The notes beneath the pieces were generated by a model, which ran no database searches, was not told the DNA's origin, and saw nothing but the letters and a program-made list of their open reading frames with translations. A stretch of DNA of 64,000 nucleotides from an uncultured Acidobacteriota bacterium (GTDB lineage Bacteria; Acidobacteriota; Polarisedimenticolia; J045): assembly GCA_963702545.1 (NCBI GenBank), contig CAVPDB010000013.1, positions 90,118 to 154,117 of the forward strand, written 5' to 3'. The first letter of the stretch is position 1; each line of letters begins with the position of its first letter. The position numbers and the translations under genes are program-made. Positions 6,274 to 27,354 of the stretch are shown piece by piece.

Positions 6274-7743
6274 ATGTGCGGATTCCTCGGGATCATCGGA
6301 ACCGAAGACCCGGTGCGCGAGGTCCACGACGGACTGCTCGCGATCCAGCACCGCGGGCAGGACGCCGCCGGGATCGTGACCTGGAACGGCCGGTTCCACC
6401 TGCGCAAGGCGATGGGCCTGGTGCGCGACGTCTTCACGCCCGAGACGATGGCCGGCGTCGGCGGCGAGTATGCGATCGGCCACGTGCGCTATCCCACCGT
6501 GGGGGCCGGCGGCGTGGAGGACGCGCAACCGTTCGTCGCCACGCACCCCTTCGGGATCGCGATGGCGCACAACGGCAACGTCGCCAACTACGCCGACCTG
6601 AAGCACCACCTGCAGCAGCGGGTCCGGCGCCAGCTGCTCTCGAGCTGCGACGTCGAGGTGATCCTCTCGGTCTTCGCCGACGCGCTGGCGCGGCAGAGCG
6701 CGGGGGGCGCGTTCTCGACCGAGGTCTACTGGGCGGCCGTGGCCGAGGTCTTCGCCCAGGTCAAGGGGGCCTACTCGGTCGTCGGCTTCATCGCCGGGGA
6801 GGGGCTCTTCGCCTTCCGCGATCCCTACGGGATCAAGCCGATCTGCTTCGGGCGCCGCGTCCGGCCCGACGGCCGGACGGTCTATGCCGTGGCCTCCGAG
6901 AGCGTCGTGCTCGAGACGCTGGGCTACGAGATCGAGCACCGGCCGCGCGCCGGCGAGGCGGTCTTCGTGCGCCCCGACGGCGAGGTGCTGATCGAGCGGG
7001 TCGCCCCGGTCGCGACCTTCCGCCCCTGCATCTTCGAGCACGTCTACTTCGCCCGGCCCGACAGCACGCTCGACGGGGTCTCGGTCTACCGCGCCCGCGA
7101 GCGGATGGGGCGCGCACTCGCGGACAAGGCGCGGCGGCTGGGGATCACGGCCGACATCGTCGTCCCCGTGCCGGAATCGTCCCGTTCGGCGGCGCTGGAG
7201 ATGGCGCGGGCGCTGGAGCTGCCGTTCCGCGAGGCGTTGGTCAAGAACCGCTACGTGGGCCGGACCTTCATCATGCCCGGCGACGCGGCCCGCCGGCGCT
7301 CGGTGCGGCACAAGCTCAACGTGATCGGGTCCGAGGTGCGCGGCCGCGCCGTGCTGCTGGTCGACGATTCGATCGTGCGCGGCACGACCGCGCGGCAGAT
7401 CATCGAGATGGTCCGCGAGGCGGGCGCGAAGCGGGTGATCCTGGCCTCGACCGCGCCGCCGCTCCTGCACCCGTGCGTCTACGGGATCGACATGTCGACC
7501 CGCAGAGAGTTCGTGGCGCGGGGCCGGACGGTCGAGCAGGTGGCGGAGTTGCTGGGGGCGGACGCGGTGATCTACCAGGAGCTGGACGAGCTCGTCCGCT
7601 CGGTGCGTTCGGAGTCGCCCGAGCCGCTCGACGACACCTGCCACGCCTGCTTCTCCGGCCTCTACCCGACCGGCGACATCGACGAGCGCGAGCTGCTCCA
7701 GGTCGAGGAGGAGCGGCTGACGGCGAATCCGGAGGGAGCCTGA
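6274..7743 (+). CDS. purF: amidophosphoribosyltransferase
   Basis: Starts MCGFLGIIG (N-terminal Cys nucleophile of class II glutamine amidotransferases). PRPP-binding loop VLLVDDSIVRGTTARQIIEMVREAG. The long 984-aa ORF upstream of this Met is non-coding-looking. Confidence 0.95.
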   Translation: MCGFLGIIGTEDPVREVHDGLLAIQHRGQDAAGIVTWNGRFHLRKAMGLVRDVFTPETMAGVGGEYAIGHVRYPTVGAGGVEDAQPFVATHPFGIAMAHNGNVANYADLKHHLQQRVRRQLLSSCDVEVILSVFADALARQSAGGAFSTEVYWAAVAEVFAQVKGAYSVVGFIAGEGLFAFRDPYGIKPICFGRRVRPDGRTVYAVASESVVLETLGYEIEHRPRAGEAVFVRPDGEVLIERVAPVATFRPCIFEHVYFARPDSTLDGVSVYRARERMGRALADKARRLGITADIVVPVPESSRSAALEMARALELPFREALVKNRYVGRTFIMPGDAARRRSVRHKLNVIGSEVRGRAVLLVDDSIVRGTTARQIIEMVREAGAKRVILASTAPPLLHPCVYGIDMSTRREFVARGRTVEQVAELLGADAVIYQELDELVRSVRSESPEPLDDTCHACFSGLYPTGDIDERELLQVEEERLTANPEGA

Positions 7744-7928
7744 CCCGCTGCCGCCGCGCGGTTAGCCCCTCGCCCCCCCGATCCGTCCCTCCGATTCGCC
7801 GTTCCGGCCGGCTTATCGAGAAAAATAGGCGTGTTTCCGTTGAACCCCGCTCCCTCCCGGGAGTACGGTTTCCCTGCAGAGGAGTCAACCGGCCGACCGG
7901 GGGGCAGTTCGGGCAGGGAGGAGGGTCC

Positions 7929-8357
7929 ATGCCGGAACTGGTATTCGACGAGGTTCTCGAGCAGGCCGGGTTCCGGCCCACTCGACAAAGACGGGCCGTC
8001 TACGAGCACCTCGAGGCGATGCACGGTCATCCCACCGCGGAGGACGTCTTCCACGCGGTGCGGATCGAGTTGCCGCGGATCAGCCTGGCGACCGTGTACA
8101 AGGCGCTCGACTCGCTCGTGGAGTCGGGCGTGGCGCAGAAGATGAGCGGCGCCGACGGGACGGCGCACTTCGAGTCCCGCGTCGACGAGCACTTCCACGC
8201 CCGCTGCCGCGCGTGCAACCGAATCGTCGACGTCGAGGCGCTGCCCGAGTTCCACCGCTGCGTCGACAAGATCCGCACCGCGGGCTTCACGATCGAGCGG
8301 GCCCGGCTCGAGCTGACCGGGGTCTGCGAAGTCTGCGCGCGTCAGCACCACAACTGA
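7929..8357 (+). CDS. Fur-family metalloregulator (Fur/Zur/PerR type, subfamily not assignable)
   Basis: 142 aa. Winged-helix N-terminus (RPTRQRRAVYEHLEAMHGHPTAEDVFHAV..ISLATVYKALDSLVESG) and two CxxC pairs (CRACN, CEVCA), as in Fur-family proteins. Confidence 0.85.
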   Translation: MPELVFDEVLEQAGFRPTRQRRAVYEHLEAMHGHPTAEDVFHAVRIELPRISLATVYKALDSLVESGVAQKMSGADGTAHFESRVDEHFHARCRACNRIVDVEALPEFHRCVDKIRTAGFTIERARLELTGVCEVCARQHHN

Positions 8358-8477: not shown

Positions 8478-9761
8478 GTGGCGCAGCCGCTGCACGTCCG
8501 GATGCTCGTCGGCGCCGCCGCCGGCCTTGCGCTGGGGGTGGCCGCGCACCTGCTGCTCGACGGCACCCCGTTCCTCGACGCCGCGATCCGCTTCGTCGCC
8601 CAGCCGGTCGGCCAGGTCTTCCTGCGGCTGCTCTTCATGCTGGTCCTGCCGCTCGTCTTTTCGTCGCTGGTGCTCGGCGTGACGGAGCTGGGGGACGTGC
8701 GGCGCGTCGGTCGGGTCGGCCTCAGGACGCTGGCCGTGACGGTCGTGGCCTCGACGATCGCGGTCGGGATCGGGGTCACGCTGGTCAACCTGCTGCGGCC
8801 CGGCGCGGGGCTGCCCCCCGAGACGCGGGCCCGCCTGCTGGAGGGGGCGGCCGAGCGCAGCGGCGCGCTGCCCGCCGTGACGGGCGCGCGCGGCGGGATC
8901 GACCTGCTCGTGCAGATGGTCCCGGACAACCCGCTCCGCGCCGCCGCCAACGGCGACATGCTGGCGGTGATGGTCTTCGCGCTGCTGTTCGGGATCGGCC
9001 TGTCGACGGTCCGGACCGAGGGGGCGCGCCGGCTGCTGGAGGTGATCCAGGGGCTCTACGACGTCACGATGCGGCTGATCGGCTGGGTGATCCGGCTGGC
9101 GCCCTACGGCGTGGCCGCGCTGCTGTTCGTGCTGGCAGCGCAGCTGGGCTACTCGGTGCTGGGGCAGTTGGCGCGCTACGTCGGCGTGGTCCTGCTGGCG
9201 CTCGGGCTGCAGCTCGTGGTGGTCTACTCGCTGCTGGTCCGGTTCGGCGGCGGGATGAGCCCGCGCGCCTTCTTCCGGGGGAGCGAGGAGGCGATGCTGA
9301 CCGCCTTCTCGACCGCCTCCAGCAACGCCACCCTGCCGACCGCGCTGCGCGTCGCCGAGACGGAACTGGGGCTCCCGCCGCGAATCAGCCGCTTCGTCCT
9401 GACGATCGGGTCGACGGCCAACCAGAACGGCACCGCGCTGTTCGAGGGGGTCACCGTCCTGTTCCTGGCGCAGTTCTACGGCGTCGAGCTGACGCTGGCG
9501 CAGCAGGTCCTGGTCAGCTTCGTGGCGATTCTGGGTGGGATCGGGACCGCGGGGGTGCCGGCCGGCTCGCTGCCGGTGGTGGCGATGATCCTGGGGATGG
9601 TCGGCATCCCGCCCGAGGGGATCGGCGTGATCCTGGGGGTCGATCGCTTCCTCGACATGTGCCGCACCACCGTCAACGTGACGGGGGATCTCGCCGTGGC
9701 GGTGGTGGTGGCGCGCGGCGAGCCGCGCGAGCCGGCGGCCGCGGTGCGGCCGGGCGCGTGA
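8478..9761 (+). CDS. dicarboxylate/amino acid:cation symporter (DAACS/GltP family)
   Basis: 427 aa, GTG start after GGGAGG. Family motifs SSNATLPTAL, NQNGTALFEG, GTAGVPAGSL and DRFLDMCRTTVNVTGD. Confidence 0.9.
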   Translation: MAQPLHVRMLVGAAAGLALGVAAHLLLDGTPFLDAAIRFVAQPVGQVFLRLLFMLVLPLVFSSLVLGVTELGDVRRVGRVGLRTLAVTVVASTIAVGIGVTLVNLLRPGAGLPPETRARLLEGAAERSGALPAVTGARGGIDLLVQMVPDNPLRAAANGDMLAVMVFALLFGIGLSTVRTEGARRLLEVIQGLYDVTMRLIGWVIRLAPYGVAALLFVLAAQLGYSVLGQLARYVGVVLLALGLQLVVVYSLLVRFGGGMSPRAFFRGSEEAMLTAFSTASSNATLPTALRVAETELGLPPRISRFVLTIGSTANQNGTALFEGVTVLFLAQFYGVELTLAQQVLVSFVAILGGIGTAGVPAGSLPVVAMILGMVGIPPEGIGVILGVDRFLDMCRTTVNVTGDLAVAVVVARGEPREPAAAVRPGA

Positions 9762-9898
9762 GCGGCGGGGCGGCGCGCCCCGCCCTGCTGCCGCGCGGCC
9801 GGCGCGGCGTGTTTCCGGCGGCGCTGCGGGTCGGTTAGACTCCATCCCCCGTCCGCTCCGGACGACGCGCCGACCCGGCGCAGGATCGGCCCGACCCG

Positions 9899-11245
9899 AT
9901 GCGTGGACCCGAGATCGACGCGAACGCCTCCGCGGCCCCGACCCCGGCCCGGCGCCCGTCCGGCTTCTCGAGCCTGGTGCTCCACCTCCACCCGCGCGCC
10001 GTCCCCGCCGCCGCGCTGCGCTTTTCGCTGACTTTCGGCCTCGGCGGGGCGGCGCTGGTGCTCTTCCTGCTGCTGGCGGCCAGCGGGGCGCTGCTGCTCG
10101 TGGCCTACGAGCCGTCGCCCGAGCGGGCCTACGGCACGGTGGCCGCGCTGGTCGACGAGGTCCGCTTCGGGGCCTTCATCCGCAACATGCACTACTGGTC
10201 CGCCAACGGGCTGGTTCTCGTGACGGTCCTGCACCTGCTCCGCGTCTTCTATCGCGGCGGCCACCTGCCACCGCGCCGCGGCAACTGGATCGTCGGCGTG
10301 CTGCTGCTGCTGCTGGTCGTCGCCAGCGCCTTCACCGGCTACCTTCTGCCGTGGGATCAGCTGGCCTTCTGGGCGGTGACGATCAGCACGGGGATGCTGG
10401 AGTACGTCCCGCTGGCCGGCAGTGTGCTGATGCGCGCCGCGCGCGGCGGCGCCGAGATCGGCCCGACGACGCTGGCGCGCTTCTTCGTGCTGCACGTCGC
10501 GATCCTGCCGATCGCGCTGCTGATGCTGCTGGCCTTCCATTTCTGGCTCGTGCGCAAGGTCGGCGGCGTGATCCTGCCGCGGGGCGTCGGGACCGACGCC
10601 GCGCCGCGCGGCCCGCTGGTCCCGACCTCGCCCGGCCTGACGCAGCGCGAGGGGGTCGTCGCGCTGGTGGTCGTGGCCGCCGTGCTGCTGCTCGCCGCGG
10701 TCGCCAACGCGCCGCTGCTGGCCGAGGCCAACCCGGGGATGAGCCCCAACCCGGCCAAGGCGCCGTGGTACTTCATGGGGGTGCAGGAGCTGCTGGTCCA
10801 CCTCCACCCGCTGTTCGCGGCCTTCGTGATCCCGCTGGCGGCGCTGGTCCTGCTCTTCGCCCTGCCCTCGCTGGCGGGCGGGGCGAGCCCGTCGGGGCTC
10901 TGGTTCGAGTCGCCGCTCGGCGCGCGGCTCGCCGGCTGGTCGGCCCTCGCGGGTGCGCTGCTCTGCGGCGCGGCGATCGTGCTCAACGAGCCGCTCCGCC
11001 GCGCGCCGCCGTGGATCCCGGCGCTGCCGCCGGAGTTGCGCGGCGGCCTGCTGCCGGCGCTCGCGCTGGCGGGCGCCGTCGCGGCCGTCGGCTTCGTGGC
11101 GAAGCGGCGGGGCGCGAACCGGATCGAGTCGATCCAGGCGATGTTCAGCTTCGTGCTGGCCGCGTTCGTGGTGCTCACCGCGACCGGCGTCCTGTTCCGC
11201 GGCCAGGGGATGGCGTTGAGCTGGCCGTGGACGCCGCCGGCGTAG
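9899..11245 (+). CDS. cytochrome b (fused b6-like N-terminal domain plus subunit-IV-like C-terminal domain)
   Basis: 448 aa. Two His pairs on transmembrane helices (RNMHYWSANGLVLVTVLHLL and FFVLHVAILPIALLMLLAFHFW) and the PWDQLAFWAV motif of bc/b6f-type cytochrome b. Confidence 0.9.
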   Translation: MRGPEIDANASAAPTPARRPSGFSSLVLHLHPRAVPAAALRFSLTFGLGGAALVLFLLLAASGALLLVAYEPSPERAYGTVAALVDEVRFGAFIRNMHYWSANGLVLVTVLHLLRVFYRGGHLPPRRGNWIVGVLLLLLVVASAFTGYLLPWDQLAFWAVTISTGMLEYVPLAGSVLMRAARGGAEIGPTTLARFFVLHVAILPIALLMLLAFHFWLVRKVGGVILPRGVGTDAAPRGPLVPTSPGLTQREGVVALVVVAAVLLLAAVANAPLLAEANPGMSPNPAKAPWYFMGVQELLVHLHPLFAAFVIPLAALVLLFALPSLAGGASPSGLWFESPLGARLAGWSALAGALLCGAAIVLNEPLRRAPPWIPALPPELRGGLLPALALAGAVAAVGFVAKRRGANRIESIQAMFSFVLAAFVVLTATGVLFRGQGMALSWPWTPPA

Positions 11246-11278
11246 GAGGGCGCGTGACCGCACGCGGCGTGCACCCGG

Positions 11279-11773
11279 ATGGCCCCCTCCCGGCTCCTGC
11301 CGACGCCGGGGCGCCGGCGCTTTCTCGGGCGGCTGTGGCAGGCGCTCGGTTTGCTGGCCCTGGTCGAGTTCGCGGCCGTCGTCGCGAGCTTCCTCGCCCC
11401 GCGCAAGGAGGGCGGCGCGCGCGGGACCGGCGTGATCGAGGCCGGCCCGGTCGGCGAGTTCACGCCGGCCACGGTGCGCGCCTTCCCGGCCGGACGCTTC
11501 TACCTGGCCCGCCTCGCCGACGGCGGCTTCCTCGCGCTCTCCTCGCGCTGCACGCACCTCGGCTGCACCGTCCCCTGGGACGAGAAGACGAAGACCTTCC
11601 CCTGCCCCTGCCACGCCTCCTCGTTCGACCTCCAGGGGAACGTCCTGTCGCCGCCCGCGCCGCGCGCGCTCGACCTGTTCCCGGTCGCGATCGAGAACGG
11701 GATCGTCAAGGTCGACACGTCCCGCCGGATCGAGCGCCAGCGCTTCGAGCCGGGCCAGGTCACCTACCTCTAG
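11279..11773 (+). CDS. Rieske [2Fe-2S] protein
   Basis: Twin-arginine-like N-terminus (GRRRFLG) and Rieske boxes CTHLGC ... CPCHAS. Confidence 0.9.
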   Translation: MAPSRLLPTPGRRRFLGRLWQALGLLALVEFAAVVASFLAPRKEGGARGTGVIEAGPVGEFTPATVRAFPAGRFYLARLADGGFLALSSRCTHLGCTVPWDEKTKTFPCPCHASSFDLQGNVLSPPAPRALDLFPVAIENGIVKVDTSRRIERQRFEPGQVTYL

Positions 11774-11781
11774 GCGCCGCG

Positions 11782-14145
11782 ATGACCGACCCCGAGACCA
11801 TGCGCGACCCCGAACGGCCCGAGGCGGCCGACCCGCTGCGCCGCTGGCGCGCCGCCGGCGTCGCCGCGACCGCGCTGATCGCGCTGTCGGTCCCGCTGCA
11901 CCTCGCGATGCGCGCGCTGGGCTCGCCGCGCACCGTGCCGGCGCCGTCCGCGCAGTACGTCGGCAGCGAGCGCTGCCGGAGCTGCCACCAGCAGGAGTAC
12001 GACCGCTGGAAGGGCTCGAACCACGCGCTCGCGATGCAGGCGGCGAAGGACGGGACGGTGCTGGGCGACTTCCGCGACGCCACGTTCGAGCACCGCGGCA
12101 AGACCTGGCGTTTCTTCCGGAAGGACGGCCTGTTCATGGTCCACGCCGAGGGCCCGGACGGGGCGATGCGCGACTTCGAGATCGCCTACACCTTCGGCGT
12201 CCGGCCGCTGCAGCAGTACCTGGTCGTCTTCCCGGGCGGCCGGCTGCAGACGCTCTCCGCGGCCTGGGACACGGAGCGGCGGCGCTGGTTCTACGCCAAC
12301 CCCGGGCCCGACGCGCCGCCCGGCGACTGGCTGCACTGGACCCGGCCGGGCCAGAACTGGAACGCGATGTGCTCGGACTGCCACTCGACCGCGGTCCGCA
12401 AGCGCTACGACCCGGAAACCGACGCCTACCAGACGACCTGGTCCGAGATCATGGTCGGCTGCGAGGCCTGCCACGGGGCCGGCTCGCTGCACGCGGCCTG
12501 GGCCGAGCAGCCGGCGATGGGACGCCCGGCGGTGGAAAACGCGGCCCTCCCCGCCCGCACCGCGAAGCTGAGCGGGCCGGAGCTGGTCGGGCTCTGCGCG
12601 CCGTGCCACGCGCGGCGCGCGCAGTTCGAGGACCAGGGGACGCCCGGCGGCGAGTTCCTCGATCGCTACCTGCCGGTCCTGCTGGCGCCCGGGGTCTTTC
12701 ACGCCGACGGCCAGATCCTGGACGAGGATTTCGAGTGGCACGCCTTCACGCAGAGCAAGATGTACGCCAACGGCGTGCGCTGCAGCGACTGCCACGACGT
12801 CCACTCGGTGCGGCGGCACAAGGAGGGGAACGAGCTGTGCACCCGCTGCCACCGCGCCGACACCTACGACACGCCGACCACCACTTCCATCAGAAGGAGT
12901 GGAAGGGGCGGCCCAGCGCGGGCGTGCTGTGCGTCTCGTGCCACATGCCGGGGCAGAACTTCATGGTCGTCCACTTCCGCCGCGACCACTCGATGCGCGT
13001 GCCGCGCCCCGACCTGACCGCGGAGCTGGGGGTTCCCAACGCCTGCAGCGCGTCGGGCTGCCACGACGACAAGCCGATCGGCTGGGTCCAGGCGAAGTAC
13101 GACGGGTGGTACGGGAAGAAGCGCAAACCGCACTACGGCACCGTCCTCGAGGGGGGCCGGAGGCAGGCGCCCGAGGCCGAGGCGGAACTGGTCGCGCTGG
13201 CGCAGGACCAGTTGCGCCCGATGGTGGCGCGGGCCACGGCGATCAGCCTGCTGGCCGGCTACCCCGGCGCGCCCGCGCGGGCCGCGGTGGAGAAGGCGCT
13301 GGCCGATCCCGAGCCGCTGCTGCGCGCGACCGCGGTGCAGGCGCTCCCCGAGGGCGACGCGGCGCGGCTGGCGCGCCTGCTGGGGCCGCTGCTGCAGGAC
13401 CCGGTCCGCGCGGTCCGCGCCGAGGCGGCGGCGCGGTTGGCCGGGTCGCCCCCGGAATCCCTGCCTGAATCGCAGCGCAAGGCCCACGCGGCGGCGCTCG
13501 ACGAGTACGTCGCCGGGCAGCGCTACATGTCCGACCTGCCGTCGGGGCCCTACAACCTCGGGAACCTCTACGCCGCGCAGGGGCAAGCCGGCCGAGGCCG
13601 AGCGGCAGTACCGTCGCGCGCTGGAGATCGACGATCAGCTCTTCCTGGCGAAGGCCAACCTGGCGATGCTGCTGGCCACGACCGGACGCCTCGACGAGGC
13701 CGAGACGCTGCTGCGCGAGGCCCACGCCGAGCAGCCGGCCAACGCCGCGCTGGCCTTCAACTTCGGGCTCCTGCTGGCCGAGCGGAACAAGCCGGCCGAG
13801 GCCGAGGCCGCGCTGCGGGCCGCGCTGGCCGCCGACCCGCGGATGGCCCCGGCGGCCCTCAACCTGGCCGTGCTGATCGGCGAGACGCGCCCCGCGGAGG
13901 CGGTTCCCCTGGCGCGCCGGGCCGCCGCGCTGCGGCCGGACGACCCGCGCAGCGCCTGGACGCTGGCCTACTACCAGCAGCGCGCAGGCGACCTGCGCGG
14001 CGCCGAGAGCACGCTCGACGCACTGCTGCGGGCCCACCCCGACTACGCCGACGCCCACGGCCTGCTGGCCGAGATCTACGCCCGGCAGGGCCGGGCCGCG
14101 GAGGCGCAGGAACTGCTCCGGCGGCGGCCCGCGGCGCCGAGATAG
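11782..14145 (+). CDS. membrane-anchored octahaem c-type cytochrome fused to HEAT/TPR repeats (reading frame broken twice)
   Basis: Three consecutive frames join into one protein.
- 11782 to ~12874 carries an N-terminal TM helix and CRSCH, CSDCH, CEACH, CAPCH, CSDCH, CTRCH.
- ~12876 to ~13580 carries DHHFHQKEW, CVSCH and CSASGCH (a CX4CH site), then HEAT-like repeats.
- ~13582 to 14145 carries TPR repeats.
- Junction 1: ACG CC|GAC CAC CAC (one base missing near 12874-12875).
- Junction 2: one extra G in the G run at 13580-13583. Confidence 0.8.
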
Positions 14146-14196
14146 CGGGACGGGAGCGCCGGGCGCCGGCGGGATCCTGGGCCGGGGGAGCGCCGG

Positions 14197-14228
14197 CCGG
14201 GGGACCGGCCCGGCCGCCGGTCCCCCGG
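14197..14228. terminator. 13-bp-stem hairpin between convergent genes
   Basis: CCGGGGGACCGGC (14197-14209), loop CCGGCC, GCCGGTCCCCCGG (14216-14228): a perfect stem. It lies in the 103-bp gap between the cytochrome-TPR gene and the M16 gene. No U-tract. Confidence 0.45.
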
Positions 14229-14248
14229 CCCGTCGAGGAACTCCCGCC

Positions 14249-15766
14249 CTACGGCAGCGGCTTCAGCGTCAGCGGGTCGCGCAGCGGCAGACGGGTGACC
14301 TTGCCGTCGAAGAACTGCTTCATCGAAGCCTTGCCGTCGGCGTCGCCCTTCTCGATTTCGGCCCACTTGCCGACCACGAGGAACGCCATCTCCGGCTGCT
14401 TCAGGTACTGCTTGGCAACGCGCTGCACGTCGGCCGAGGTGACCTTGCCGATCGCCGCGCGGTAGTTCTGCCAGTAGGCGTGCGGCCGGCCGATGTACTC
14501 GTCGGCGGCGAAGATCCCGGCGATGTCCGCCGGCGACTCGAAGTTCTGCGGGAAGGTCTCGACGAACTGGTTCCGGCTGGTCGCCAGCTCCTCGGCCGTC
14601 ACGCCCTTCTCCTGTACCGACGCGATCTCCTCCAGCGCGATCTCGGAGGCGAAGGCGACGGTCGGGTTCTTGGTCTGGAAGAAGACCGAGAAGGCGCCCG
14701 GCCAGTAGTTGCCGATCCCCAGCGAAGAGCCGGCGCTGTAGGCCAGCCCCTCGTCGGAGCGTACGCGCTTGGTGATGCGGGAGGTGAAGCCGCCGCCGCC
14801 CAGCACGTCGTTCATGACCTGCAGCGCGTAGGCGTCGGGGATCTCCCACTTCGCGTCCCACTGGATCGTGCGGTGTCCGATCAGGACCTTGGCCTGCGGG
14901 ATGTCCTTCTCGACGTGGTAGAGCCCCGGCTTGACGGCGTGGGCCGGCAGCGCGGGCGGCCAGGGGACCTTCGGCCCCGCCGGCTTCCAGCCGGCGAAGC
15001 GCTGGTCGAGCTTCGCGATCAGCTCCTGCGCCTTCACCGCCCCGGACGCGGCCACGATCATGTTGCCCGGCTCGGGGCGCCACCACTGGCGGTGGAAGGC
15101 GACCAGGTCGTCGCGGGTGATCGCGTCGAGTTCCGCCTTCGTCGCCTTGCGACTGGAGAAGGCCGACTCGCCGTACAGCAGCCAGCCCCACTCGCGCGAG
15201 AGGATCGTCTGGGCGTCGTCGTTGCGCTGCTTCATCGCCTCCAGGTTCTGGTCCTTCTCGACCCGGATCCGGTCCTCCTGGAAGCGCGGGGTCTTCAGCA
15301 TCGCGAACATCAGGTCCAGGCAGGCGTCGAGCTGCGTCACGATGCAGTTCATGCTGACGCCGGCCTCGGTGTCACCGGCCGAGCTGCCGATCTCGGCGGC
15401 GAGGAAGTCGGCCCGCTCGTCGAACTGCTCGGCCGTCAGGTCGCCGGCGCCCCCCTGGCGCATCAGGGTGCCGGTCAGCCCGGCCAGGCCCGGCCGGTCG
15501 GGCGCCAGGAACTGCCCGGCGCGGATCTTGATCGAGACGCTGACCAGCGGGAGCGAGAAGTCCTCGGCGATCCAGGCCGAGAGCCCGTTCTTCAGCTTGA
15601 ACTGGTATTTCTCGGCCTTCGGGACCTCGAACTTCAGCGGCGCGTACTGGAGATCGCGCGGGTGGCGCGGAAGCTCGGCGGTGGCGGCCGCCGGGGCGGC
15701 GAGCGCGAGGCTCGCGGCGCCGCACAGGGCGGCGCTAGCGATGAGGATGTGGGTGACGGTCTTCAC
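14249..15766 (-). CDS. M16-family peptidase, non-catalytic (no HxxEH) subunit
   Basis: 505 aa from the GTG at 15766, preceded by GGGAGGTG. Signal peptide present. Shows the M16 fold pattern but no HxxEH zinc motif. The start overlaps the stop of the upstream M16 gene (GTGA). Confidence 0.8.
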   Translation of the reverse strand: MKTVTHILIASAALCGAASLALAAPAAATAELPRHPRDLQYAPLKFEVPKAEKYQFKLKNGLSAWIAEDFSLPLVSVSIKIRAGQFLAPDRPGLAGLTGTLMRQGGAGDLTAEQFDERADFLAAEIGSSAGDTEAGVSMNCIVTQLDACLDLMFAMLKTPRFQEDRIRVEKDQNLEAMKQRNDDAQTILSREWGWLLYGESAFSSRKATKAELDAITRDDLVAFHRQWWRPEPGNMIVAASGAVKAQELIAKLDQRFAGWKPAGPKVPWPPALPAHAVKPGLYHVEKDIPQAKVLIGHRTIQWDAKWEIPDAYALQVMNDVLGGGGFTSRITKRVRSDEGLAYSAGSSLGIGNYWPGAFSVFFQTKNPTVAFASEIALEEIASVQEKGVTAEELATSRNQFVETFPQNFESPADIAGIFAADEYIGRPHAYWQNYRAAIGKVTSADVQRVAKQYLKQPEMAFLVVGKWAEIEKGDADGKASMKQFFDGKVTRLPLRDPLTLKPLP

Positions 15767-17604
15767 TTCGCACCTCCCGCTGCCTTCAGCTCGGCCAGTC
15801 GGCCTTCCACGGTCTTCTGCAGGTACTCGAGAGCCGGCTTGAACTCCGGAGGCACCGCGCCGGCCTGCTGCTGGATCTGGGCCAGCGCCTGCTCGAGCCG
15901 CGCGGCGTCGGTCTCGGCCTGGATCTTCTTCGCCTGGCCCACGATCCCAGCCCGCACCTCCGGCGGCAGCGCCGCCAGCTCGGGCGGCACGACCTCCGCC
16001 GTCGACCCGGCCTTGCGGGTGTAGACGCCGACCGTGCGGTTCTCCTTCGTCAGGTAGGCCTTGGCGACGCGCTGCACGTCGTCCGCCGTCACCGCCAGCG
16101 TGCGGTCGGCCCAGCCGTTCAGGTAGCGCCAGTCGCCCAGCCCCTCGTAGTAGAGCAGCTGGACCATCAGGAAGAACGGGTTCTCCAGCCGCCGGAAGGC
16201 GTCGGCCGCGATCTGGTTCTTGACCTTCTGCAACTCCTCGGCCGGGACCGTCTCGTTCTGGATCCTCGCGGCCTCGGCGTACCAGGCCTGCTCGAGCTGC
16301 TCGGGGGTCGCGTCCCCCCTGGTCTCGGCGTAGAAGGTGAAGACGCCGGCCCACTTGCGAGAGTCCTGGCTGGCCGTCGCCGAGGTCGCCAGCTGGTCCT
16401 TCAGGACCAGCTGCTTCTCCAGCCGCCCGGTGGGGCCGTTCATCAGCCCGGCCAGCACGTCGAGCGGGTACGAGTCCTTGTGCATGAAGGGGACCGTCTG
16501 GTAGGCGATCTGGACCTGCGGCTGGCAGTCGCACTCGGCCACCATCCGCTGCTCGGCGAGCTGAGGCATTTCCTCGGTCACGACCGGCGGCGGGGCCGGG
16601 GCGCGCTCGGTCGTGCGGCCGAAGTAGCGCTGCGCCAACGCCCGCACCTGGGCCGGGTCGAAGTTCCCGACCATCGCGACCGTGATGTTCGAGGGCGAGT
16701 AGTAGGTCCGATAGTAGTCCTCAGCCTGCTTCTTCGAGATCACCTTGAGATCGGACGGCCAGCCGATCACCGGCCAGCCGTAAGGGTGCGACTGCCAGAC
16801 CAGCGACTCGAACTGCTCGTCGAACTTCCCGGTCGGCGTCGAGTCGGTCCGCAGCCGGCGCTCTTCCATCACGACGTCGCGCTCGGAGTAGAACTCGCGC
16901 GGGACCAGGTTGAAGAGCCGGTCCGACTCCATCCAGAACCAGAGCTCGAGCTTGTTGGCCGGGACGGTGATGAAGTAGACCGTCATGTCGCTGTTGGTGA
17001 AGGCGTTCATCCCCGAGCCGCCGGCCTCGGTGTAGATCTTGTCGAACTCGTCCTTGACCATCAGCGCGCGCTGCTCGTCGACCAGCGCCTGGAACCTCTT
17101 CTCAAGCTCGATCTGCTCCGGCGTGCGGGCCCCCGGGTCCCAGGGGTCGGCGATCTCGCCGCGGCGCCAGCGCTCCTGCTGGCGGGCGTAGATCGCGCGG
17201 ATCTGCTCCTGCAGCTGCTCCTGCTCGGCCAGGATCTGCAGGTCGCGCTCGATGTTGGTGGTGCCGATCGCGCGCGAGCCCTTGAACATCATGTGCTCGA
17301 ACAGGTGGGTCAGCCCGGTGATCCCGGGCCGCTCGTTGGAGGAGCCGACGTGCGCCACCCAGCCGGCGGTGACGGTGGTCAGCTCCGGCTTGCGGACCAG
17401 GAGGAAGGTCAGTCCGTTGTCGAGCGTGAAGCTGTCGACCTGGACCTGGGCCGACGCGGCCGGCGCGGCGGCCGCAGCTCCGGCGGCAAGGGCCGGCGGC
17501 GCGGTGAGCGCCGCGAGTGCGAGCGCGAGCGCGGCGAAGGCCGCGAACGCCGCACGGCGGGCGGGGAGGCCGCGTGGGATGGAACGCGAGACCAGCGGGA
17601 TCAT
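15763..17604 (-). CDS. M16-family zinc peptidase, catalytic subunit
   Basis: 613 aa from the ATG at 17604, preceded by AAGGAGAG. Signal peptide present. Inverted zinc motif HLFEHMMFKG. The rest of the 1619-aa ORF upstream is out-of-frame overlap with the SNF2 gene. Confidence 0.9.
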   Translation of the reverse strand: MIPLVSRSIPRGLPARRAAFAAFAALALALAALTAPPALAAGAAAAAPAASAQVQVDSFTLDNGLTFLLVRKPELTTVTAGWVAHVGSSNERPGITGLTHLFEHMMFKGSRAIGTTNIERDLQILAEQEQLQEQIRAIYARQQERWRRGEIADPWDPGARTPEQIELEKRFQALVDEQRALMVKDEFDKIYTEAGGSGMNAFTNSDMTVYFITVPANKLELWFWMESDRLFNLVPREFYSERDVVMEERRLRTDSTPTGKFDEQFESLVWQSHPYGWPVIGWPSDLKVISKKQAEDYYRTYYSPSNITVAMVGNFDPAQVRALAQRYFGRTTERAPAPPPVVTEEMPQLAEQRMVAECDCQPQVQIAYQTVPFMHKDSYPLDVLAGLMNGPTGRLEKQLVLKDQLATSATASQDSRKWAGVFTFYAETRGDATPEQLEQAWYAEAARIQNETVPAEELQKVKNQIAADAFRRLENPFFLMVQLLYYEGLGDWRYLNGWADRTLAVTADDVQRVAKAYLTKENRTVGVYTRKAGSTAEVVPPELAALPPEVRAGIVGQAKKIQAETDAARLEQALAQIQQQAGAVPPEFKPALEYLQKTVEGRLAELKAAGGAK

Positions 17605-17711: not shown

Positions 17712-20693
<2,982 letters not shown>

Positions 20694-24855: not shown

Positions 24856-27354
<2,499 letters not shown>

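Follow-up and report, generated by a model that had tools for sequence, protein, structure and literature searches.

The principal energy-conserving quinol oxidases in respiration and photosynthesis are Rieske/cytochrome b complexes, of which only the versions with cytochrome c1 or f, and a few with di-haem cytochromes, are understood. Within this superfamily, the clade with the motif A-P-W-Y in the Qo site (the APWY clade of Kao and Hunte) was described in 2014 and is known from sequences alone. Here we describe a locus of this type in a 64,000-nt stretch of DNA from an uncultured Acidobacteriota bacterium (assembly GCA_963702545.1, contig CAVPDB010000013.1, positions 90,118 to 154,117; the whole stretch is called the window below). 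Three of its genes encode a cytochrome b, a Rieske [2Fe-2S] protein and an eight-haem (octahaem) cytochrome c that ends in HEAT- and TPR-like helical repeats. With moderate confidence, we read them as one operon for a three-subunit, membrane-bound quinol:acceptor oxidoreductase of the APWY clade.

Multihaem partners are the rule in this clade. It includes Geobacter ExtO, ExtP and ExtQ (GSU2933, GSU2932 and GSU3620), whose ext cluster encodes 4-, 5-, 10- and 12-haem proteins plus a porin (PMC2825233, PMC5877670). The Geobacter system and the window locus have in common the APWY Qo motif, a b6-like N-terminal half of cytochrome b, the H-x14-H spacing in helix D and multihaem c-type partners instead of c1 or f. 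They differ in that ExtP and ExtQ are split and the window cytochrome b is fused, and in that a single octahaem protein, similar to OcwA and MccA and with a HEAT/TPR tail, stands here in place of the Geobacter set of partners. The complexes of the anammox bacterium Kuenenia (PMC12954380) likewise have multihaem c subunits that are anchored by a transmembrane (TM) helix on the positive side of the membrane. Further likenesses are a five-helix part resembling subunit IV, the Rieske proteins (match at 1e-14) and an N-terminal histidine of the HLHP type. However, the anammox cytochrome b is split and encoded after the Rieske protein, where the window has a fused cytochrome b followed by Rieske; the anammox complexes retain the haem-cn cysteine (seen in locus L074) that the window protein lacks; and their 6- and 8-haem subunits are unrelated in sequence, come with NAD(P) reductase modules and have no TPR domain.

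For the octahaem protein, the nearest described proteins belong to the 'clade 3' group of OcwA (Thermincola potens, 6I5B), OmhA, MccA and c554 (PMC6703420, PMC9250108). The likeness lies in a profile match, seven haem sites collinear with those of OcwA, an extra beta-sheet domain after haem 1 as in OcwA and MccA, and the eight-haem count of MccA. OcwA, however, carries nine haems, sits on the surface of a Gram-positive bacterium and ends in a three-helix bundle. The window protein is anchored by an N-terminal TM helix, has ~330 residues of HEAT/TPR repeats and is genetically linked to Rieske and cytochrome b. Its variant haem-binding site is CX4CH, a form limited to some lineages, where MccA has a CX15CH site.

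The three genes occupy positions 9899-14145 of the window on the plus strand (Table 1). The G+C content of the window is 74%, rising to ~97% at third codon positions (GC3), so that the coding frame is legible straight from composition. An earlier note, made from the DNA letters alone, had described three co-oriented, tightly spaced genes, and this holds: the gaps are 33 bases between cytochrome b and Rieske and 8 bases between Rieske and the octahaem gene. It had also stated that no c1- or f-type subunit is present. We found no CxxCH motif in a coding context anywhere in the 64 kb except in the octahaem gene, and no c1 or f gene adjoins the trio. A monohaem cytochrome c1 or f, which a canonical bc1 or b6f complex requires, was thus not found in the 64 kb, and the loci of relatives hold the octahaem-TPR gene in its place. 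A scan of 9600-14400 for promoters and terminators returned nothing at this G+C content.

The description of the first protein as a fusion of a b6-like and a subunit-IV-like part was borne out by the Pfam match, the ligand histidines and the single 448-aa polypeptide. The N-terminal half is b6-like, with four helices and two haem b sites, and the C-terminal half is subunit-IV-like with two extra predicted helices. The haem b ligands are His98 and His112 in helix B (H-x13-H) and His199 and His214 in helix D (the b6-type H-x14-H). Among 87 compared cytochrome b sequences, the helix D pair was kept in all and the helix B pair in 85, the other two having gaps there. The Qo motif is A-P-W-Y, within a stretch (AKAPWYFMG) that is invariant in the close clade. 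APWY occurs in 79 of the 87 sequences, the window protein included; the variants were AAWY (4), SPWY (2) and PPWY (1), and in three of the 79, Leu takes the place of the Phe after the motif. Where b6f has the cysteine that ligates haem cn, the window protein has Gly (in the stretch TFGLGG); more distant APWY members (Brocadiales, Nitrospina) retain the cysteine. An AlphaFold2 (AF2) model contained nine long helices; its confidence is low, with a mean predicted local distance difference test (pLDDT) score of 49.3, and only the helix count was used.

Judged by its invariant Qo motif, this cytochrome b belongs to the APWY clade of Kao and Hunte. A phylogenetic grouping with the published members would be in keeping with Geobacter ExtP being the best curated family match and with an overlap between our taxa and those listed in the paper. 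Membership of the ExtP or ExtQ family itself was rejected, with NCBIfam scores of 254 bits for ExtP (cut-off 290) and 38.9 bits for ExtQ (cut-off 150). The closest solved chains were cytochrome b6 (1.6e-42, over the N-terminal half) and then bc1 cytochrome b (1e-30). With b6f, which provides the nearest solved relatives of both cytochrome b and Rieske, the window proteins share the 14-residue spacing in helix D and the short 12-residue Rieske spacer. They differ from b6f in the fusion of b6 with subunit IV and its two extra predicted C-terminal helices, in Gly for the haem-cn Cys, in APWY for PEWY, in a Rieske box II that ends in Phe where b6f has Tyr, and in the lack of cytochrome f. Identity of the cytochrome b was 97% to metagenome proteins and 78% to the protein of Anaeromyxobacter oryzae, and its named relatives are Anaeromyxobacteraceae.

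Two further histidine pairs were noted in this protein. His29 of the N-terminal L-H-L-H-P stretch (His29/His31, window 9980-9994) is kept in 81 of the 87 APWY-type sequences, and a second pair, His301/His303, lies at 10799-10810. In AlphaFold3 models of the Kuenenia complexes, an additional b-type haem at the interface of the dimer is proposed to be ligated by one N-terminal histidine from each cytochrome b monomer (PMC12954380).

The second gene encodes a Rieske protein with a twin-arginine signal, as the earlier note had proposed: the N-terminus carries RRRFLG, the cluster boxes CTHLGC and CPCHASSF stand 12 residues apart, and the Pfam match is significant (1e-10). Upstream of the ATG at 11279, no other in-frame start was present as far back as the stop at 11255-11257. 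The box II signature CPCH(A/S)SxF and the 12-residue spacer are conserved across the clade, and the closest solved chains were the b6f Rieske protein (6e-15) and the Rieske proteins of Kuenenia (1e-14). In box II, Phe stands at the place of the Tyr of high-potential Rieske proteins. Mutational work on bc1 complexes has shown that loss of this Tyr lowers the Rieske potential. By analogy, the potential of the window protein should therefore be lowered, which would fit menaquinol as the donor.

The third gene was said to encode a membrane-anchored protein with seven CxxCH sites and one CxxxxCH site, followed by repeats. The sites, the TM anchor and the TPR part were all found again, but the gene is not a single open reading frame (ORF) in the deposited DNA: it has two frame breaks, considered below, and the count of seven plus one is obtained solely by reading through both of them. 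CxxCH sites 1-6 lie at read-through residues 65, 197, 227, 272, 334 and 353; site 7 is CVSCH, and site 8 is CSASGCH (residue 422, window ~13,044-13,064). Every full-length octahaem-TPR copy has exactly eight positionally conserved haem sites, and all homologues have CxxxxCH or CxxCH at the alignment position of site 8. The longer form occurs in Myxococcota, several Acidobacteriota, Gemmatimonadota, Woeseiaceae, Verrucomicrobiota and Desulfobulbus, and the shorter one in Bacteroidota, Ignavibacteria, Caldithrix, Desulfobacteraceae and Vicinamibacteria. The N-terminal TM helix carries a Trp22 and a Pro38 that are conserved in 20 of 20 diverse homologues, down to 41% identity, which argues for a specific membrane packing of this helix rather than a disposable signal peptide.

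The fold of the octahaem protein was modelled with AF2 on a 94%-identical intact homologue. With a mean pLDDT of 67.8, the model was confident for the TM helix, a beta-sheet domain and ~350 residues of HEAT/TPR repeats, and unreliable for the haem core (pLDDT <50). The beta strands lie at residues 85-171, between haems 1 and 2 (block-mean pLDDT 63-89), and the helical repeats at residues 433-781 (mostly 80-97; residues 560-781 mostly 88-97, with a few blocks lower). Of the two repeat types named in the earlier note, TPR was clearly over the Pfam cut-offs (TPR_19, 7e-21, 74.9 bits against 25; TPR_16, 4e-16, 59.7 bits against 32.7). HEAT remained a weak match, with HEAT_2 (4e-5) at 24.2 bits under its cut-off of 27.7; the model shows paired helices at residues 433-560 (block-mean pLDDT mostly 72-93). 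A Foldseek search of the model against the Protein Data Bank matched only TPR superhelices. A haem-domain profile built from 20 homologues matched OcwA (6I5B, 3.9e-23), OmhA (6QVM, 1.8e-12), c554 (1BVB, 8e-5) and MccA (4RKM, 5e-4). Seven of the eight haem sites align in the same order with sites of OcwA, and an invariant HHFH cluster lies opposite HHPH of OcwA.

The association of the three genes was examined in a one-genome-per-species scan with a cytochrome b alignment, which gave 80 loci, to which six were added. In 27 of these genome loci, from at least eight phyla, the octahaem-TPR gene directly follows the Rieske gene. The carriers are Myxococcota, Acidobacteriota, Gemmatimonadota, Ignavibacteria, Bacteroidota, Calditrichota (Caldithrix), Woeseiaceae, Desulfobacterota and Verrucomicrobiota. 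The order cytochrome b, Rieske and octahaem-TPR protein of ~790 aa was found, for example, in A. oryzae, in three metagenome contigs, in a metagenome-assembled genome (MAG) of Thermoanaerobaculaceae and in a contig at 58% identity. A reciprocal scan of metagenomes, seeded with the haem domain only, yielded 44 loci with 2 kb or more of sequence upstream; in 35 of them, Rieske and cytochrome b directly precede the octahaem gene. The cytochrome-TPR gene is thus conserved beside the b/Rieske pair in relatives, where the earlier note had taken its absence as grounds for giving up the idea, and in the relatives it follows b and Rieske wherever the sequence is long enough. No gene family outside the trio recurred in the flanks of the 27 loci beyond closely related contigs, which indicates that the trio travels as a unit.

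In a neighbour-joining tree of cytochrome b, all proteins linked to an octahaem-TPR gene formed one clade, sister to a clade from Chloroflexota. The order b before Rieske, which had been noted as the reverse of classical operons, proved to be specific to this octahaem-linked clade among the loci of the tree; in most APWY loci, Rieske precedes b. In the Chloroflexota sister clade, Rieske is followed by the gene for a class-I cytochrome c with three haems and a TM anchor; the corresponding gene encodes a two-haem protein in Symbiobacteriaceae and a one-haem protein in a Gemmatimonas locus. Across the APWY loci compared, the haem numbers of the partners range from 1 to 10. Because sister lineages hold a c-type cytochrome after Rieske, we regard this position as the slot of the c subunit. 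Together with the conserved trio and the lack of c1 or f nearby, this agrees with the core idea of the earlier note, a non-canonical module in which an octahaem-TPR protein replaces c1/f.

Stand-alone octahaem-HEAT/TPR paralogues with no Rieske or cytochrome b upstream were seen in loci L108, L145, L148, L152, L153, L155, L156, L158 and L160-L164. These are nine of the 44 metagenome loci and four more with 1.1-1.7 kb of upstream sequence; they have 43-52% haem-domain identity and TM or lipoprotein-like N-termini. The octahaem-TPR family is thus not made up exclusively of subunits of bc complexes, and as judged by these homologues the architecture is a broader family than its bc-linked subclade.

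Neither the superfamily nor the APWY clade nor the idea of multihaem partners is new; the cassette is absent from the literature that we searched. Searches for the trio or its subclade (Rieske, cytochrome b, octahaem, TPR) found no description. A survey of Desulfuromonadia cytochromes mentions neither TPR nor Rieske, and the genome paper of Ignavibacterium album reports alternative complex III alone. A Rieske/cytochrome b pair of Caldithrix is described in PMC5317091; it sits in a nap/eHao locus and may be a different copy. Our analysis defines a coherent subclade: its three-gene cassette is fixed, it has one well-conserved octahaem partner, akin to the enzymes OcwA, MccA and c554, and no other neighbours are conserved. 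Its carriers are bacteria of soil, sediment and wastewater that are relevant to the cycling of nitrogen, sulfur and metals. One of them, A. oryzae, is a named species with a complete genome. Together, these properties make the trio experimentally tractable.

The reading of the trio as a quinol:acceptor oxidoreductase draws on what the sequences show directly: three genes with their cofactor motifs and homologies, a trio whose members and order are conserved, and no c1/f. From these we infer complex formation, the direction of electron flow, the type of quinone and the role of the TPR part. Menaquinol would be oxidized at a Qo site to which cytochrome b and the Rieske head both contribute. One electron would pass through the [2Fe-2S] cluster to the haem chain of the octahaem cytochrome, which would replace c1/f and be tethered at the periplasmic face through its N-terminal TM helix. 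The second electron would cross the membrane through haems bL and bH to the Qi site, as in a Q cycle, without haem cn. The eight-haem domain would carry electrons away from the membrane, and the HEAT/TPR superhelix may be a scaffold in the periplasm, either holding a partner or keeping the complex in position within the envelope. The terminal acceptor could be a partner recruited by the TPR arm, or the electrons could be used in catalysis at an open haem of the octahaem subunit. We read the octahaem protein as the c subunit because of the c-subunit slot in the sister clades, the conserved TM helix and the lack of any other CxxCH gene in the 64 kb. A role of the TPR part in docking a periplasmic partner is plausible; the 27 loci share no partner gene beside the trio.

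Several points weigh against this proposal. Bis-His multihaem cytochromes often have lower potentials than the Rieske cluster, so that forward transfer would run uphill. Both AF2 models are weak, that of the octahaem protein particularly in its haem region (mean pLDDT 67.8) and that of cytochrome b throughout (49.3). The stand-alone paralogues suggest that the octahaem-TPR protein can work outside such a complex, and the octahaem gene might be a real pseudogene in this strain, which we think improbable on grounds given below. Finally, no complex of the APWY clade has been characterized (Kao and Hunte, PMC4122944).

The haem part of the octahaem protein raises the question of whether it transfers electrons or uses them itself. 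It is possible, if doubtful, that the subunit is itself the terminal reductase, with an open-site haem, most likely haem 2, that reduces nitrite, hydroxylamine, sulfite, a metal or a shuttle. The module would then be a complete quinol:substrate oxidoreductase that needs no soluble carrier. The homology to OcwA, OmhA, MccA and c554 speaks for this, as haem 2 is five-coordinate or catalytic in the three characterized relatives OcwA, MccA and c554 (PMC6703420, PMC9250108). So do the alignment of seven of the eight haem sites and of HHFH with those of OcwA, the beta-sheet domain, placed between haems 1 and 2 like that of MccA and OcwA (PMC6703420), and the lack of a conserved partner gene. An open-site haem is possible from the ligand candidates too: outside the haem-binding motifs, seven His and four Met are invariant, and seven histidines are one short of the eight haems. 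However, seven His and one of the four Met would suffice for eight six-coordinate haems, so that the ligand count does not decide this point. OcwA haem 5 (pocket HH380/381) appears to have no counterpart in the octahaem protein, the modelled haem region is unreliable, and the long TPR tail is easier to explain by partner binding. We thus hold only tentatively that the trio could be a self-sufficient Q-cycle enzyme of a hitherto undescribed kind, in which a catalytic octahaem reductase of the OcwA/MccA type stands in for c1 and electrons pass from menaquinol to a periplasmic substrate with a gain in proton-motive force and no soluble carrier. Its substrate might, with the same reservation, be nitrite, hydroxylamine, a sulfur oxyanion or a metal, and the HEAT/TPR arm might position the enzyme in the envelope. 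A catalytic octahaem subunit would amount to a new energy-conserving route from menaquinol to periplasmic acceptors and, if the enzyme is indeed self-sufficient, a cassette spread over at least eight phyla would be a widespread and overlooked branch of anaerobic respiration.

The direction of electron flow is a separate matter. Kao and Hunte proposed reverse operation for the APWY clade from the Pro in place of the Qo Glu and from a cluster in G. metallireducens that is linked to p-cresol methylhydroxylase (PMC4122944), and APWY is invariant in the trio-linked cytochrome b. In such a scheme, the octahaem-TPR protein would gather periplasmic or extracellular electrons, and Rieske and cytochrome b would drive them into the menaquinone pool at the expense of the proton-motive force. 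We think this unlikely: the proposal is itself a hypothesis, the carriers of the trio are diverse heterotrophs and anaerobes, and no donor-oxidizing enzyme is conserved beside it. Least of all do we expect that the octahaem-TPR protein is not a stable subunit, be it a co-transcribed and separately anchored redox partner that collides with the core, or a protein whose TPR part is a maturation chaperone of the CcmI/NrfG type. The stand-alone paralogues without Rieske or cytochrome b would fit a loose partner, and the Pfam CcmH/CycH TPR domain, which the protein matches weakly (22.9 bits; cut-off 42), would fit a chaperone. But the protein sits exactly in the c-subunit slot of the sister clades, the sequence of its TM helix is conserved, and the core would otherwise have no c-type acceptor encoded within the 64 kb; a maturation chaperone, moreover, would not carry eight conserved haem sites.

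Whether the window copy of the octahaem gene is functional turns on its two frame breaks. As deposited, translation from 11782 stops at 13017; six haem sites are kept, and haems 7 and 8 and the HEAT/TPR part are lost. Compared with the metagenome contig L002, which is 96% identical over the operon and has an uninterrupted gene, the window lacks one base of a short C run near 12,877 and has an extra base at a G run near 13,581. The first break falls directly before the invariant His-His-x-His cluster, where homologues at 94% identity show no interruption. In relatives at 94-96% identity the gene is a single unbroken ORF (787 aa), and intact homologues of 787-788 aa occur at 94%, 84% and 77% identity and below. 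A real pseudogene, which would leave at most a six-haem stump without haems 7, 8 and the TPR part, is consistent with the presence of both length changes in the deposited sequence. Yet GC3 is 0.96-0.98 (~0.97) in all three segments, and the two changes restore the frame. At least six further frame breaks were found in at least five unrelated genes of the window (Table 1), mostly of the housekeeping type, bringing the total in the 64 kb to eight; codon bias is intact on both sides, and one of the breaks cuts a Pfam domain. About 12% of the window genes would be affected, as is typical of homopolymer errors in long-read assemblies. The trio is fragmented in the same way in two long-read-style MAG loci.

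With eight breaks and an intact codon bias, homopolymer-type assembly error is a more probable explanation than decay of the octahaem gene. Both breaks in this gene are most likely assembly indel errors, and the organism probably makes an intact 787-aa protein. Programmed frameshifting was considered and rejected, as neither site has a slippery heptamer, the ORF of relatives is continuous and similar breaks occur in unrelated genes. Of the two MAG loci, L044 has its cytochrome b split in two and its octahaem gene in four or more pieces, and L025 has its cytochrome b split in three, which is consistent with indel-rich assemblies rather than biology. The many single-base breaks in the window suggest an error-prone assembly of the long-read type, and gene calls in it need care.

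Table 1. Coordinates of the trio, of the frame breaks and of neighbouring genes in the 64,000-nt window
Feature	Position	Strand	Details
Fused cytochrome b	9899..11245	+	448 aa; Pfam Cytochrome_B 1e-43
Rieske [2Fe-2S] subunit, twin-arginine signal/anchor	11279..11773	+	164 aa; Pfam PF00355 1e-10
Octahaem-HEAT/TPR gene, overall	11782-14145	+	Read across frames
Octahaem gene, segment 1 (frame 1): TM helix, beta-sheet domain, haems 1-6	11782..~12879	+	Translation; GC3 0.98
First frame break, frame 1 to frame 0	12870..12885	+	Three-frame translation, GC3 frame plot, contig comparison
Octahaem gene, segment 2 (frame 0): haems 7 and 8, HEAT-like repeats	~12882..13580	+	GC3 0.97
Second frame break, frame 0 to frame 1, at G run	13576..13586	+	Translation, GC3 plot, contig comparison
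Octahaem gene, segment 3 (frame 1): C-terminal TPR superhelix, stop codon	~13585..14145	+	TPR_19 7e-21, TPR_16 4e-16
Frame break in MgtC/DUF4010 gene	~31,335	+	DUF4010 domain split into profile positions 1-92 and 96-210
Two compensating frame breaks in Reg_prop/Y_Y_Y sensor kinase	~47,350 and ~46,790	-	
Frame break in hydrolase-like gene	~52,735	-	
Frame break in NmrA-like gene	~55,740	+	
Frame break in SWIM/SNF2 helicase	~59,500	+	
Fur-family gene	7929-8354		
M16 peptidase genes (two)	14249-17475	-	
SWIM/SNF2-family helicase gene	17715-20630	-	Paralogue of the gene at 59164-62554
H+-pyrophosphatase gene	24859-27318	-	
SWIM/SNF2-family helicase gene	59164-62554	+	Paralogue of the gene at 17715-20630

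The earlier note had also pointed to a gene for a Fur-family regulator upstream of this iron-rich module. The gene is present, with a symporter gene between it and the operon, but the implied link to iron did not hold up. The adjacency recurs only in locus L004 (94-97% identity) and is absent from A. oryzae and all other loci. As it is limited to this nearest relative, Fur was rejected as a dedicated regulator of the module, and the apparent iron link is most likely a coincidence.

Between the symporter gene and cytochrome b, the closest relatives L004 (at 7359-7979), L002 and L003 carry an adenylate-kinase-like gene. The window has a 138-base gap there instead (9762-9898), and tblastn over the whole window gave no match to the encoded protein.

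Sulfatase-family (PF00884-like) genes flank 16 of 107 octahaem-TPR loci, with the trio as well as stand-alone, and none of 59 APWY loci without octahaem-TPR (Fisher p = 7e-4, a statistic that ignores phylogenetic kinship). The loci concerned are L001 (12352-14820), L007, L018, L044, L087, L088, L105, L106, L111, L116, L125, L152, L156 and L161-L163; no sulfatase-like gene was found in the 64-kb window.

Near the module, the window contains no respiratory genes besides the trio. Elsewhere it carries two paralogous helicase genes of the SWIM/SNF2 family on opposite strands, two M16 peptidase genes and an H+-pyrophosphatase gene (Table 1), as well as genes for an RND transporter, a tricorn-type protease and a fusion of an acyl-CoA synthetase with an acyltransferase.

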